Positions 5,389-63,732 of a stretch of DNA of 64,000 bases are shown piece after piece. Positions within the stretch are counted from its first letter, which is position 1. The number at the start of each line of letters is the position of its first letter. The notes under the pieces are model-generated. The model was given only the letters and a program-made list of their open reading frames with translations, was not told the origin of the DNA and made no database searches. Made by a program: the position numbers and the translations under genes. Source of the DNA: an uncultured archaeon (GTDB lineage: Archaea > Thermoproteota > Bathyarchaeia > Bathyarchaeales > Bathycorpusculaceae); NCBI GenBank assembly GCA_963810275.1, contig CAWENF010000018.1:24187-88186 (forward strand). Direction: 5' to 3'.

Positions 5389-5473
5389 GCAGGGGTCGCC
5401 AAGCCAGGTCAAAGGCGTAGGCTTCAGGAGCCTATCCCGCAGGGGTTCGTGGGTTCGAATCCCACCCCCTGCA
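5389..5473 (+). tRNA. tRNA-Leu(CAG)
   Basis: Acceptor GCAGGGG/CCCCTGC; anticodon arm TAGGC-TTCAGGA-GCCTA; long variable arm; GTGGG-TTCGAAT-CCCAC T arm; no encoded CCA. Confidence 0.97.
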
Positions 5474-23503: not shown

Positions 23504-24583
23504 CTATTTTTTTTGTCTTAGCGCCTTTGGGATATAGGCGCACCTAAGGTCTGAACCAAAAATGTCACCGGTGTAAAATAACGCCGCAGAACGACAGCCA
23601 CCGCATATGTCAAGGTACTCGCAGACACCGCATTTACCTTTTAGATTTCTCTTGTCCTTTACTTTGCTAAAGAAATCCGAATTTTGCATTCGATTCCAGA
23701 TTTCTTTCACTGTTTTATTTTTAATATTTCCAACGCGATATGTGTCGTTGTAGCTGCATGGTATGACATCGCCGTTTTCAGCTATGCTCATGAACTTGCC
23801 AAAAAAGCACCTTCCAAGGAAGAAGTTGTTGTACCATTCGTCGAAGTTTTGTATGCCACGTTGTTTGGCGACTCTGGCATAGAAGGGGATATAAACGTTA
23901 ATGCCTGGGGTGCCGTTGTATTTTTGCGTTAAATCAAAGAGCTTGTTGCATACCCATTCGTATTGCGCAGGCGTCAAATCCGCTTTAAGACACTGGGGGT
24001 CCCCACTGTAGGGTACAAATCCGTGGAAAACCACCCACCGCGCACCGTATTTTTTGGCGAGCTCCAGCACATGCACTATGTCCTCTTCGTTTGCGTTGGT
24101 CACATCATCTCGATTGGCAAAAGTGTAAACTAAAACGTTAAGCAGACCCTCTTTAGAAAAGCGCTCAATAGCAGCGACCGCCGCATCGTATGCGCCTTCT
24201 CCCCGAATAAAATCATTGTTTTTCTTTGCACCGTCAATGCTCACAGAAATCTTGGTCTTATTCTTAATTATGTGCTCTATAGCTTTCTCGTCAAGCAATC
24301 TACCGTCGGTTATGATGCTGGTGTTTAAACCTTTACTGACTGCATAGTCCAAAACTTCAAAGAGATCTTTTCGCTGAAAAGGCTGTCCACCTGTTACACC
24401 AAAAAAGCTTGCGCCAAACTCGCTGACTTGGTCAACGATTTGCATTGCTCCTTGTGTGTCTACCTCGTCAAGGAAAGCGGCTTTACCGGCCGAAACGCAG
24501 TGGGCGCAGTTAGCCTCACAGGCAAACGTACATCGCCACGGAACAATCAATAGTGGTCCCTTACTTGTCAAGCTCGAAATCAC
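23504..24583 (-). CDS. Radical SAM protein with SPASM domain (AhbC/D/PqqE-like)
   Basis: CEANCAHC; C...GDVIPC; KGKCGVCEYLDICGGCRS...C SPASM motif. Confidence 0.88.
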   Translation of the reverse strand: MISSLTSKGPLLIVPWRCTFACEANCAHCVSAGKAAFLDEVDTQGAMQIVDQVSEFGASFFGVTGGQPFQRKDLFEVLDYAVSKGLNTSIITDGRLLDEKAIEHIIKNKTKISVSIDGAKKNNDFIRGEGAYDAAVAAIERFSKEGLLNVLVYTFANRDDVTNANEEDIVHVLELAKKYGARWVVFHGFVPYSGDPQCLKADLTPAQYEWVCNKLFDLTQKYNGTPGINVYIPFYARVAKQRGIQNFDEWYNNFFLGRCFFGKFMSIAENGDVIPCSYNDTYRVGNIKNKTVKEIWNRMQNSDFFSKVKDKRNLKGKCGVCEYLDICGGCRSAALFYTGDIFGSDLRCAYIPKALRQKK

Positions 24584-31887: not shown

Positions 31888-32007
31888 AATTCTTTTTCTT
31901 CTCACGCATTTTAGCTCCTTCTTTTACTTTATTTAGCATAAAACTGGTGGGCTCTTCGAAGATGCCCTTATATGGCAGACGGCGTATGCAAAGTTAAGTG
32001 TGCGCAC

Positions 32008-32559
32008 ATGAATTTTTGGCGTGACATCCCAACAGGGGACAACCCACCCGAACAGTTGAACATGGTAATCGAAGTTGCATCTGGCAAACGCGACAAGTAC
32101 GAGTACAGCATCAAATGGGAAGCCTTCGTGCTGGACCGAATTATCCCTTCCTCAGTAGTATTCCCTGTCGAGTACGGTTTTGTACCGCAAACATGGTTTG
32201 ACGATAACGACCCACTTGACATTATGGTTTTTAGCTACACACCCTTAACAACTGGATGCATCGTTAAAGTCCGGGTTATAGGTGCTTTAATTATCGAAGA
32301 CGAGGAAGGTTTAGATGCTAAAATCCTCTCGGTGCTGGTTAACGATGCCCGATTTGAAGGTGTGCGGGACATACCGGACATGCATGAGCATAGGCTTGTG
32401 GAGATTCAGGAGTTCTTTGAAACCTACAAGCGCCTCGAACCACACAAATGGGTTAAGGTGCGAGAATGGAAAAACGCTAAGGACGCCAAAAAAATCGTTG
32501 AGTACTCCATGGAGAAGTATCGAGAGTTGACTGAGAAACCGCCTGCAAATCACAAGTAG
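32008..32559 (+). CDS. ppa: Soluble inorganic pyrophosphatase
   Basis: KYEY, LDR, YGFVPQT, DNDPLD, DEEGLDAK, FFETYK. Confidence 0.93.
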   Translation: MNFWRDIPTGDNPPEQLNMVIEVASGKRDKYEYSIKWEAFVLDRIIPSSVVFPVEYGFVPQTWFDDNDPLDIMVFSYTPLTTGCIVKVRVIGALIIEDEEGLDAKILSVLVNDARFEGVRDIPDMHEHRLVEIQEFFETYKRLEPHKWVKVREWKNAKDAKKIVEYSMEKYRELTEKPPANHK

Positions 32560-32651
32560 ACGACTTATCGTTTGCTACTAGGCGTTAAAGGTAGCAGTGG
32601 TTTTTGGCAGGACTTGTGATAACGCGGACTGTTTTTTAAGTTTAACCTGTA

Positions 32652-32706
32652 TCAAATGGTGCAAATAACACGTTTTTTGTTACAGGTTTGTCGCAAAACT
32701 TATAAT
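32652..32706 (+). promoter_or_regulatory. Promoter of ncRNA copy 1 (upstream box plus BRE/TATA)
   Basis: TCAAATGGTGCAAA 79 nt and CGCAAAA-CTTATAAT about 32 nt before the predicted 5' G; spacing identical in copy 2. Confidence 0.6.
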
Positions 32707-32730
32707 TTACGTTGTACTATGGTGTTTATT

Positions 32731-32964
32731 GCGGGACAGGGAGCAAGCTTTAGAAGCAATTCACCAAGCACAGAAGCGCACCAGTAAAAACAGCGAAAAA
32801 CTGGTATGCGACAAAAACTTTGCTTAGGTGGGCTGAACCATTGCTTAATGTTGAATCATCGAAACCCTGATGCTCTGGCTATTAAGCAGTATAAGTAGCC
32901 TGAAGCGACCAACACAAGGTTTAGGTGGGCTGTATTCAGCAATAAGGCTCAGACCTGCCACCGC
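32731..32964 (+). ncRNA. Putative novel structured ncRNA, copy 1 (234 nt)
   Basis: Paralogous to 33589-33823 with compensatory changes in several helices; 5' and 3' ends pair; own TATA box; no conserved ORF. Confidence 0.8.
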
Positions 32965-33509
32965 TCTCGTTAAGCATGTGGAAAAATATTGGTGCCATGA
33001 CACCGTTTACTTTCCACTTTTTTTGTTATCCAAAAAACTCTTGCCTGATATTTTTGTTTTTCTGCGCTAATTTCTATTTTCTCTATGTGCATTTGGCGGA
33101 GGTTAGAAATCATAAGACAACTAAACTGGACTTTTTGACAGGTGATTTTCATGATTCTGACGGAGTGTTGCTGACCGCGTCTCACATTTCAAGCTGCATG
33201 GAAACGTAGTTATATAACGTGGAAACTTTGAGTGTGCTTTTTCTGCACAAGAGAGAATAGTAATCTAACAAAGCGCAATGTAGATCCGAAATAGCATGGT
33301 TCACTAACCAGTCAATGCATAAGAAAATATGAGCCTAAGCTGTAAACTGCCCCGCAGTTCTTTGACGCGAATACAACAACATCCTGGCCAAAACAACAGC
33401 TATATCCACCGAAATATTCTTCTTTTTGAAGAGATTTTCGAGGTGCAGCAATTTACGACTAGCTAAAGCTGGCTGTTTAGTTGGTCTTTTTGTGACTTGG
33501 CAGTTTGTC

Positions 33510-33564
33510 TCAAATGGTGCAAACAGCTATAATTTTGTATCCATTGTGTCGGAAAATTTATAGT
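33510..33564 (+). promoter_or_regulatory. Promoter of ncRNA copy 2
   Basis: TCAAATGGTGCAAA at -79 and CGGAAAA-TTTATAGT at -32 relative to G33589. Confidence 0.6.
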
Positions 33565-33588
33565 TTACATCAAACTGTAGGATATATT

Positions 33589-33823
33589 GCGGGACAGGGA
33601 GTAAGCTTTAGAAGCAATGCACTAAGGCACAGAAGCGCACCAGTAAAAACAGCGAAAAACTGGCGTGCAACAAAGACTTTGCCTAAGTGGGCTGAAACAT
33701 TGCCTAATGCTGAAACACTTAGATCCTAAAGCGGAAGGTTAAAAGCAGCGAAATAACCTGAAGCGGCAAAAAAAATGGTTTAGGTGGGCTGTGTTCAGCA
33801 ATAAGGCTCAGACCTGATCCCGT
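33589..33823 (+). ncRNA. Putative novel structured ncRNA, copy 2 (235 nt)
   Basis: GCGGGACAGG pairs with CCTG(A)TCCCGT; same two-arm fold as copy 1; followed by a T-rich tract. Confidence 0.8.
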
Positions 33824-34167
33824 TTTCTTTCATCCAACTTTAAGTAAAACCATTTCTTCCTGGCATAGTTCCAAAAGAAGCGAAAATTAAAGTTTAAACA
33901 ATCTACCTAAACAAACCGCCGACTTAACTTTGAGGTTTTTTGGGCAAATCAAAGTTATGCTCACCTCTGCCTTGCACAATTCCTCAGATTGTTTTAACGG
34001 GGAAGGTTTGAAGGTTCGTGCAAACAAACAACACCGCATGCACCGCAGCGTCAGAAAGGAACTCCGCTGCTTCAGTAAGACCGTTTTCCATTTCTTGGAG
34101 TCCTCTCGATAACAATTTCCAAGTGTTCTCTTGAATAATGAATTGTAATATGTGAACCTTGTAGTGT

Positions 34168-63645: not shown

Positions 63646-63732
63646 TGGCGCGGGATGTGGGATTTGAACCCCCGTGGCCTTTCGACCACAGACTTAGCAG
63701 GCCTGCCCCATACCAGGCTTGGGGAATCCCGC
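63646..63732 (-). tRNA. tRNA-Ser(GCT) with encoded CCA
   Basis: Acceptor GCGGGAT/ATCCCGC; CAGGC-CT-GCT-AA-GTCTG; long variable arm GGTC-GAAA-GGCC; T stem with one G-A mismatch. Confidence 0.95.

Follow-up and report, generated by a model that had tools for sequence, protein, structure and literature searches.

Analysis of a 64,000-nucleotide stretch from an uncultured archaeon of the Bathyarchaeia (GenBank assembly GCA_963810275.1, contig CAWENF010000018.1, forward-strand positions 24,187 to 88,186; the whole stretch is referred to here as the window) placed two of its RNA genes in a previously undescribed family of circular noncoding RNAs (ncRNAs) of the Bathyarchaeia. The genes, here called copy 1 (positions 32728 to 32965 of the window) and copy 2 (33586 to 33824), are 83% identical over 229 nucleotides (nt), and a third copy with 78% identity lies on another contig of the same genome. 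Both precursors, delimited by the two strands of the outermost helix, P1, were recovered on the forward strand with cmsearch and a two-arm covariance model (197.6 bits for copy 1 and 212.1 bits for copy 2), and the RNA features of the window given below lie on that strand. A first-pass annotation, made from the letters of the DNA alone, had overlooked that the RNA is excised at a motif of the bulge-helix-bulge (BHB) type and circularized, which leaves it without free ends. The circle carries arms whose apical loops pair with a GCUG strand at the base of the same arm.

Excision at a bulge-helix-bulge motif and circularization

In eight salt-marsh metatranscriptome runs, at least 63% of the words sampled from copy 1 are present, and the contigs from the four runs examined cover positions 32747 to 32952 only. 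In all four of these RNA runs, position 32952 is joined directly back to position 32747 with no shared letters (the sequence goes back 206 nt), and the 236-nt contigs correspond to 206 plus 30 nt. Contigs that join 32952 back to 32747 indicate that the mature copy 1 RNA is a circle of 206 nt (32747 to 32952). The two ends of the joint coincide exactly with the two predicted BHB cut sites, which lie between the second and third bases of each bulge. In the four runs, no contig reaches copy 2 or the flanks, which says nothing of their absence.

The conserved closing loop of the precursor is a canonical BHB splice motif. Its outer helix, P1, pairs positions 32731 to 32740 with 32954 to 32964 and is absent from the mature RNA; among the 74 distinct sequences found within 84 matches to the two-arm model, on which all pair counts for two-arm RNAs were made, its 10 base pairs (bp) are 98.5% paired and 9 of them have changed on both sides. 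The 5′ half of the motif (32741 to 32747) consists of GAGC (32741 to 32744) and the bulge AAG (32745 to 32747, cut between 32746 and 32747). The 3′ half consists of GCUC (32947 to 32950) and the bulge AGA (32951 to 32953, cut between 32952 and 32953), and together with the 3′ strand of helix P2 (UAAGGC, 32943 to 32948) it occupies 32943 to 32953. The central 4-bp helix (GAGC/GCUC) is paired in all 74 sequences, seven of which have A-U in place of its first pair (alignment columns 14 and 249: GC 40, GU 27, AU 7). The 5′ bulge reads A-N-G in 73 of the 74, the 3′ bulge reads AGA in 68, AGG in 5, and AGU in 1, and the inner flank of 3 bp is 95% paired. Compensatory changes in helix P2 fit a register in competition with the BHB helix, one that is available only after excision (columns 23 and 244: UA 58, CG 11). 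In the ligated circle, P2 is capped by UCAG.

The part of PMC4090602 that deals with the BHB geometry of pre-tRNAs places the cuts at the same position as seen here. The genome itself carries two PF01974 splicing-endonuclease genes (92.1 and 71.9 bits) and an RtcB gene (590.8 bits). The endonuclease paralogues (contig C20, 23437 to 23670 and 35495 to 35749; 186 amino acids [aa] each) lie 12 kb apart, and two such paralogues suggest a heteromeric enzyme of the kind with relaxed BHB specificity. The BHB motif of copy 2 is intact (GAGU/GCUC with bulges AAG and AGA), and by homology its circle is predicted to span 33605 to 33811 (207 nt). A second contig at 32782 to 32925, found in runs X3 and X4 at similar depth, differs from copy 1 by 7 bases and a 1-nt deletion and probably represents a variant of this circle from another strain or a paralogue.

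A three-way junction with two look-alike arms

Folding of single sequences is unconvincing (minimum free energy z-scores of −1.05 for copy 1, for which 31 of 200 shuffles fold equally well, and −2.45 for copy 2), and the structural case therefore rests on relatives. The structure was derived from RNAalifold on 27 two-arm sequences, drawn from 30 by omitting L018 (three arms), L027 (partial), and L012 (duplicate), and from the pair counts on the 74 distinct sequences. Both support P1, P2, and an outer and an inner helix in each arm. The nested two-arm structure is 94.0% paired, compared to 80.3% in shuffled alignments, and 45 of its 53 pairs have changed on both sides. Similarly, a MAFFT alignment of one-arm relatives that was made without structure is 87.5% paired, compared to 72.5%, with both-side changes in 42 of 50 pairs. 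This alignment holds 36 of 40 sequences (L214 was left out as nearly identical to L213, and L255, L256, and L258 for atypical lengths); the outlier L257 was kept in its pair counts and dropped from one other analysis only.

The Y fold with two look-alike arms that the first-pass annotation had drawn for both copies stands, with P2, P3a, and P3b meeting as a three-way junction. Its placement of GGCUG as a bulge within the arm does not, for this segment is the long 3′ strand of the internal loop that separates the arm from a short closing helix, P3. P3a pairs AAGCAAU (32754 to 32760) with 32840 to 32846 and closes module 1, and P3b pairs UGUUGAA (32849 to 32855) with 32935 to 32941 and closes module 2. 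Both were assessed by duplex energy: matched strands of P3a reach −5.26 kcal/mol versus −3.49 ± 0.21 kcal/mol with permuted partners, and those of P3b reach −6.19 versus −4.00 ± 0.22 kcal/mol (0 of 200 permutations in each case), while three control pairings in the same test gave no signal. The support for P3a and P3b implies that they form a tight three-way junction with P2.

In each arm, an asymmetric internal loop separates the outer helix from an inner helix of about 11 bp, which ends in an A-rich apical loop of 13 to 14 nt. In arm 1 (32762 to 32830), the outer helix pairs 32762 to 32770 with 32821 to 32830, the inner helix pairs 32776 to 32785 with 32800 to 32809, and the internal-loop strands are 32771 to 32775 and 32810 to 32820; the helices are 86.9 to 96.2% paired, and 16 of 19 pairs have changed on both sides. 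Arm 2 (32857 to 32927) has its outer helix at 32857 to 32866/32918 to 32927 and its inner helix at 32872 to 32881/32896 to 32906, with 89.6 to 99.3% pairing and both-side changes in 17 of 18 pairs. Both helices of arm 1 have few insertions and deletions, which are more common in arm 2, and conservation is high in the internal loop and in the strand surrounding GCUG. Candidates for an H/ACA-like pocket (with an ACA box), for C/D-like boxes, and for a T-loop in arm 2 were inspected by eye and not upheld by the alignments. RNAalifold pairs between the GCUG region and the 5′ linker (columns 30-112, 32-111, and 34-109) were also set aside; they clash with the loop-GCUG pseudoknot and show zero both-side changes.

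Arm-specific pairing between apical loops and GCUG strands

The loop and GGCUG motifs lie where the first-pass annotation had put them, including the CAGU variant in arm 2 of copy 1. In copy 1, CAGC at 32791 to 32794 (within the apical loop 32786 to 32799) pairs with GCUG at 32832 to 32835, which is part of GGCUG (32831 to 32835) on the strand between arm 1 and P3a. CAGU at 32887 to 32890 pairs, through one G-U, with 32929 to 32932 in the GGCUG of module 2 (32928 to 32932). The corresponding CAGC loops of copy 2 are at 33650 to 33653 and 33746 to 33749, and its GCUG strands are at 33691 to 33694 and 33789 to 33792.

The annotation had also proposed that the CAGC-type loops pair with the GCUG strands and had named covariation in homologue alignments as a check, and same-arm covariation in the 74 distinct two-arm homologues bears this out, as the two motifs do not vary independently. 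The eight same-arm pairs are standard in 97.6% of cases versus 90.3 ± 0.5% in shuffles, cells changed on both sides number 42 versus 8.6, and the covariation score is 0.323 versus 0.182, with none of 500 shuffles as good. Registers slid by one to three columns are only 16 to 40% paired. Both-side changes occur at all four positions of arm 2 and at two of arm 1, and the compensated loop/GCUG combinations include CGGC/GCCG, CGGU/ACCG, AGGC/GCCU, AGAC/GUCU, CGAC/GUCG, and UGGC/GCCA. Arm 1 has 8 combinations and is fully paired in 71 of 74 sequences (CAGC/GCUG in 56), and arm 2 has 19 combinations and is fully paired in 68 of 74.

A further suggestion, that the arms dock on each other, fails in the same alignment. 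Cross-arm pairing is 82.1% compared to 82.2% in shuffles, with a covariation score of 0.152 in both, and same-arm pairs outnumber cross-arm pairs in 60 of 74 sequences and are fewer in none. Because cross-arm pairing equals that of shuffles, arm-to-arm docking is rejected, and the real pairing is arm-specific. In the one-arm set there are 10 loop/GCUG combinations with full pairing in 29 of 36 sequences, and the three-arm RNA of genome G013 has a matching pair in every arm. The retention of the pairing in one-arm and three-arm relatives means that each arm is a self-contained module. All three copies in the genome studied here share one code (CAGC or CAGU with GCUG).

Distribution and novelty of the family

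The family was found in the Bathyarchaeia only. A gapped motif search of a collection of species-representative genomes returned 32 loci, all in metagenome-assembled genomes of the Bathyarchaeia or Bathyarchaeota or in entries labeled "uncultured archaeon," and a scan of genome contigs with a 14-nt motif added only chance matches in unrelated bacteria. BLAST located the RNA in 26 of 61 related genomes. With the two-arm covariance model, 74 of the 151 genomes sampled from the order and 25 of the 151 sampled from the class were positive for the RNA, and the one-arm model detected it in 31 of the 151 from the class. Many relatives have a single arm (about 137 to 140 nt), and one relative with three arms (about 320 nt) was seen, in G013. 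Some genomes carry a two-arm RNA together with up to three one-arm paralogues (G052, which is one complete chromosome, G123, and G119); in the one-arm paralogues of this group, the match between loop and GCUG is weakened (AGGC/GCCA, three of four pairs). Distant relatives keep the core of P1, BHB, and P2 and differ in their rod-like interiors (L281, L282, L283, and L285, about 166 nt; L298, L299, L306, L307, and L308, about 156 nt; L304, 146 nt), which suggests a wider class of BHB-excised RNAs with exchangeable cargo.

A search of the whole window with Rfam at gathering scores matched only the tRNAs at 5389 to 5473 and 63649 to 63732, and a permissive scan of 32500 to 34000 gave four chance-level matches. 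The best of these, the hairpin ribozyme (RF00173), covers only 32766 to 32806 with 19.5 bits against a gathering score of 65 (E value, 0.82) and was rejected. The RNA of the signal recognition particle (SRP) and RNase P RNA were discounted, as the genome has both elsewhere above cut-offs (C2, 50736 to 51051; C1, 69324 to 69617). A tRNA intron was likewise discarded: the flanks, an 18-nt leader and the trailer, form no tRNA, and the tRNAs of the window lie elsewhere. No description of the RNA was found in the literature searched on bathyarchaeal ncRNAs or archaeal BHB circular RNAs, in which supplementary tables may list unnamed circles. Circles made at BHB motifs are already known; neither Rfam nor the literature searched yielded a stand-alone gene whose product is a modular, pseudoknotted circle.

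A conserved protein with a predicted nuclease fold

In many lineages, a gene for a protein of about 215 aa lies head-to-head with the RNA (for example, at 771 to 1427 of locus L237 and 788 to 1423 of L270; the genome studied here has it at C7, 20450 to 21079, outside the window). RNA neighborhoods were surveyed at 34 loci chosen for diversity, and 63 of 68 flanking reading frames were scanned with Pfam, the five left out being 80 to 107 aa long. The protein matched no Pfam family at E values up to 1e−5. The 1,158 relatives found for it are all unnamed proteins, nearly all labeled Bathyarchaeia; it is single-copy and about 60% identical across orders. The structural model (predicted local distance difference test [pLDDT] score, 90.4) has an N-terminal helical hairpin followed by a PD-(D/E)xK nuclease-like domain. 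With VIA, residues 50 to 205 gave Z scores of 9.6 against the XisH-family structure 2okf (111 residues aligned; root mean square deviation, 3.0), 9.2 and 8.5 against AF1548, and 7.5 against NucS. The top Foldseek matches belong to the same fold class (E value, about 1e−3), and a weak match to YraN was also found (E value, 0.0047). On these modeled structures, the core domain is predicted to have the PD-(D/E)xK nuclease fold.

Of the 151 class genomes, 74 encode the protein, among them 29 of the 31 that are RNA positive; the two RNA-positive genomes without it are 85% and 68% complete. In 17 of the 29, its gene is divergent from the RNA and within about 520 nt of it. From the protein side, 6 of 20 regions upstream of the gene hold a distant RNA with the same P1/BHB/P2 core and a different interior (L298, L299, L304, and L306 to L308), and L281 to L285 are likewise upstream of the gene by coordinates. 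Other observations count against a partnership: a search of roughly 1 kb upstream of the gene found no RNA in 14 of 20 regions, those of family f24 (all five) and of the genome studied here included; the protein gene of the genome studied here is on another contig and unlinked to the RNA; and in one family, 27 of 27 genomes encode the protein and only 1 has a detectable RNA. We put the chances that this protein is the partner of the circle at about even. No shared motif was seen by eye in front of the protein gene.

Promoters, flanks, and neighboring genes

Copy 1 is preceded at 32692 to 32707 by a putative archaeal-type promoter, read as a purine-rich stretch resembling a B recognition element (BRE) and a TTATAATT box about 25 nt ahead of the first paired base. 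The same block, with a conserved A/T box, also precedes copy 2, the third copy, and the relatives in the genus, and may represent BRE and TATA elements. TGTnnCAAA-like words (TGTATCAAA, TGGTGCAAA, and TGTCGCAAA) are repeated at 32644 to 32699 and 33503 to 33560, and a palindrome-like TTTGTnnCA...TGTCnCAAA lies just 5′ of the TATA-like box of both copies. The words and the palindrome are conserved between the copies and within the genus and may be the site of a regulator; a strict search of the genome for the palindrome found it at copy 1 only.

Downstream of copy 1, outside the cover of the RNA contigs, a hairpin (GUGGAAA...UUUCCAC) followed by T7 at 32978 to 33024 likely marks the end of the primary transcript, as a putative terminator. 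A conserved AAGUGGAA word begins this hairpin and is found about 10 to 15 nt past P1 in genus relatives. In copy 2, a T-rich run immediately after P1 takes the place of the hairpin. An inorganic pyrophosphatase gene (31972 to 32559) is located directly upstream of copy 1, and two relatives (L004 and L017) have the same neighbor, with an ELP3-like radical SAM gene downstream.

Proposed model and its alternatives

Overall, we think it probable that these observations reflect a circle released at a BHB motif and carrying pseudoknotted arms that fold back on themselves. Each gene, with its own archaeal promoter, would yield a short precursor whose ends pair as P1 and thereby form the BHB motif. 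The tRNA-splicing endonuclease would cut after the second base of each 3-nt bulge, and the RtcB ligase would close the middle into a circle, a three-way junction of P2, P3a, and P3b with two near-identical modules. Each arm would bend at the conserved asymmetric internal loop, its inner helix doubling back beside the outer one, and the central four bases of the apical loop would pair with GCUG at the base of their own arm, a pseudoknot that would lock the module in a compact shape. The modules would most likely offer a fixed surface to a partner, for which the nuclease-fold protein of about 215 aa would be the best candidate. For the loop-GCUG contact itself, we lean toward pairing within one molecule because each arm is closed by its own P3, because the module works as a single copy, and because different arms of one RNA usually carry different codes. 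The helix lengths may point the same way: the outer helix has about 10 bp, the inner helix is just longer (11 bp plus up to 3 noncanonical pairs), and a loop turned back through a U-turn would land where GCUG begins, one base past the last outer pair.

Several points weigh against this explanation. The evidence for the circle consists of assembled contigs, not raw reads, from four salt-marsh runs of one year that are possibly one campaign; it is direct for copy 1 only, and the other members of the family are circular by homology. Kinship among the relatives means that the counts against shuffles overstate significance. A lone sequence does not beat chance, and 4-nt complements are not uncommon in loops of 13 nt. 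In the two-arm set, nine arm cells fall short of full pairing, and at least three of these are 1-nt misalignments; six one-arm paralogues form only three of the four pairs (AGGC/GCCA), and the exceptions include a few rows that are misaligned or gapped. To make a 4-bp contact, an arm of about 21 bp would have to bend by about 180 degrees, and, read by eye, the two-arm RNAs (GAAGC/GCGAC) do not fit a simple K-turn as the hinge. Read in the same way, the one-arm RNAs have GA/GA beside the inner helix and a 9-nt insertion in the other strand.

Covariation cannot decide whether the pairing is within or between molecules, which leaves self-assembly in trans as a less likely competitor. Here, the arm would stay extended and its loop would pair with the GCUG of the same-numbered arm on another circle, giving antiparallel dimers of one-arm RNAs and larger homo- or hetero-oligomers of two- and three-arm RNAs, which might provide the nuclease-fold protein with a scaffold. 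In phi29 packaging RNA (pRNA), the loops that covary turned out to pair between molecules, an antiparallel dimer would match the loop-to-GCUG distance by itself, and the single code shared by the three copies in this genome would let paralogues mix. Against this, the lengths of the inner and outer helices would let a loop reach its own GCUG after a U-turn, and the different codes that arms mostly carry (60 of 74) would limit contacts to like arms, a pattern that independent modules would show as well. The monomer-length circle in the contigs is uninformative on noncovalent assembly. A bolder form, in which the circles are a programmed RNA assembly whose arm-specific 4-bp codes build dimers or lattices in trans that organize or restrain the nuclease-fold protein, appears less likely still. 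Given RNAs with one, two, or three arms and a co-occurring conserved protein, the idea of a protein sponge is kept alive.

Three other accounts are less probable. The loop-GCUG helix might alternate with part of the arm or P3 helices, with a ligand or protein shifting the balance, which would make the pairing a regulatory one and not a fixed fold, as the two mutually exclusive registers of the BHB region (precursor versus circle) and the high conservation of the internal loop and the surroundings of GCUG could suggest. The pseudoknot columns, however, overlap no covarying nested helix, no alternative partner was seen for CAGC or GCUG, and the 5′-linker pairs drawn by RNAalifold lack both-side changes, so that such a switch is improbable. 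It is more improbable again that the circle is a discarded intron and the ligated leader-trailer or the linear precursor the working product. BHB excision normally joins exons, and the 3′ trailer of copy 1 carries the conserved GUGGAA hairpin; however, sequence conservation and tertiary covariation are concentrated within the circle, the P1 "exons" keep pairing and not sequence, the flanks form no tRNA or other known RNA, and the contigs cover the circle and not the flanks, although contigs are weak evidence for absence. Finally, CAGC and GGCUG could be separate protein- or ligand-binding motifs with accidental complementarity, as both are strongly conserved and arm 1 varies little (56 of 74 CAGC/GCUG). 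This we regard as the least probable reading, given the 19 combinations of arm 2 with 68 of 74 fully paired, the 42 both-side cells versus 8.6, and the 16 to 40% pairing of slid registers.

Comparison with known systems and implications

Archaeal circles made at BHB motifs are described in sections of PMC4731332, PMC12558985, PMC4090602, and PMC3326292 as excised tRNA introns, pre-16S and pre-23S rRNA, and the permuted SRP RNA of Thermoproteus. The RNA described here shares with them a 4-bp helix between two 3-nt bulges, cuts after the second base of the bulge, joined ends, and the presence of endonuclease and RtcB genes. Unlike them, it is neither an intron of a tRNA, rRNA, or mRNA nor a processing intermediate; its promoter-driven gene appears to exist only for the circle, and it is a conserved RNA of 140 to 320 nt whose tertiary contacts covary and whose modules vary in number. 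Those circular ncRNAs that PMC3326292 lists are mostly C/D box RNAs of 26 to 68 nt.

As in phi29 pRNA, short complementary unpaired segments of a structured RNA covary, a pattern that does not separate intramolecular from intermolecular contacts. In contrast to phi29 pRNA, to which Rfam gave no match, the RNA is chromosomal, archaeal, and circular, its loop pairs with an internal-loop strand at the base of its own arm and not with a second hairpin loop, and the neighboring genes examined include housekeeping genes and no phage packaging context. In the SAM-I riboswitch, the P2 loop contacts J3/4 through a K-turn, and in the P4-P6 domain of the group I intron, P5abc docks. The proposed fold-back would resemble both in having a hairpin bent at an internal loop whose apical loop touches its own base, with a 4-bp Watson-Crick contact as in SAM-I. 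It would differ in having no sequence or Rfam relation to them, a hinge that seems not to fit a simple K-turn, a module repeated one to three times on a circle, and no regulated gene adjoining.

The ToxI RNAs of type III toxin-antitoxin systems consist of pseudoknotted repeated units, and CsrB and RsmZ are protein sponges. The family shares with these a varying number of repeated structured units and, in the nuclease-fold protein, a genomically linked protein. It differs from them in that the RNA is divergent from the protein gene, not upstream of it in the same orientation, and often unlinked and that its units are about 95 nt long. In contrast to mobile defense genes, the protein here is single-copy and about 60% identical across orders, and the loop motif serves RNA-RNA pairing and is not kept free for a protein. 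A type III toxin-antitoxin system was set aside on gene orientation, linkage, and protein conservation.

What is known of circular RNA in archaea is mainly by-products and intermediates (introns and pre-rRNA, for example) and small guide RNAs. The family described here has dedicated genes with a promoter and no host gene, and their sole role seems to be the release of a highly structured circle by way of the tRNA-splicing machinery. Covariation alone makes the tertiary contacts of the circle visible, and in evolution its modules have undergone both duplication and loss. As a natural, compact circular scaffold with a programmable 4-bp lock, the RNA is of interest for RNA structure work and circular-RNA engineering. 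Programmed assembly in trans, if true, would make it an RNA-scaffolded ribonucleoprotein of a kind unknown in archaea, built from covalently closed RNA. For the uncultured Bathyarchaeia, the family provides a first family-specific structured RNA, tied to an uncharacterized and strongly conserved protein with a predicted nuclease fold.

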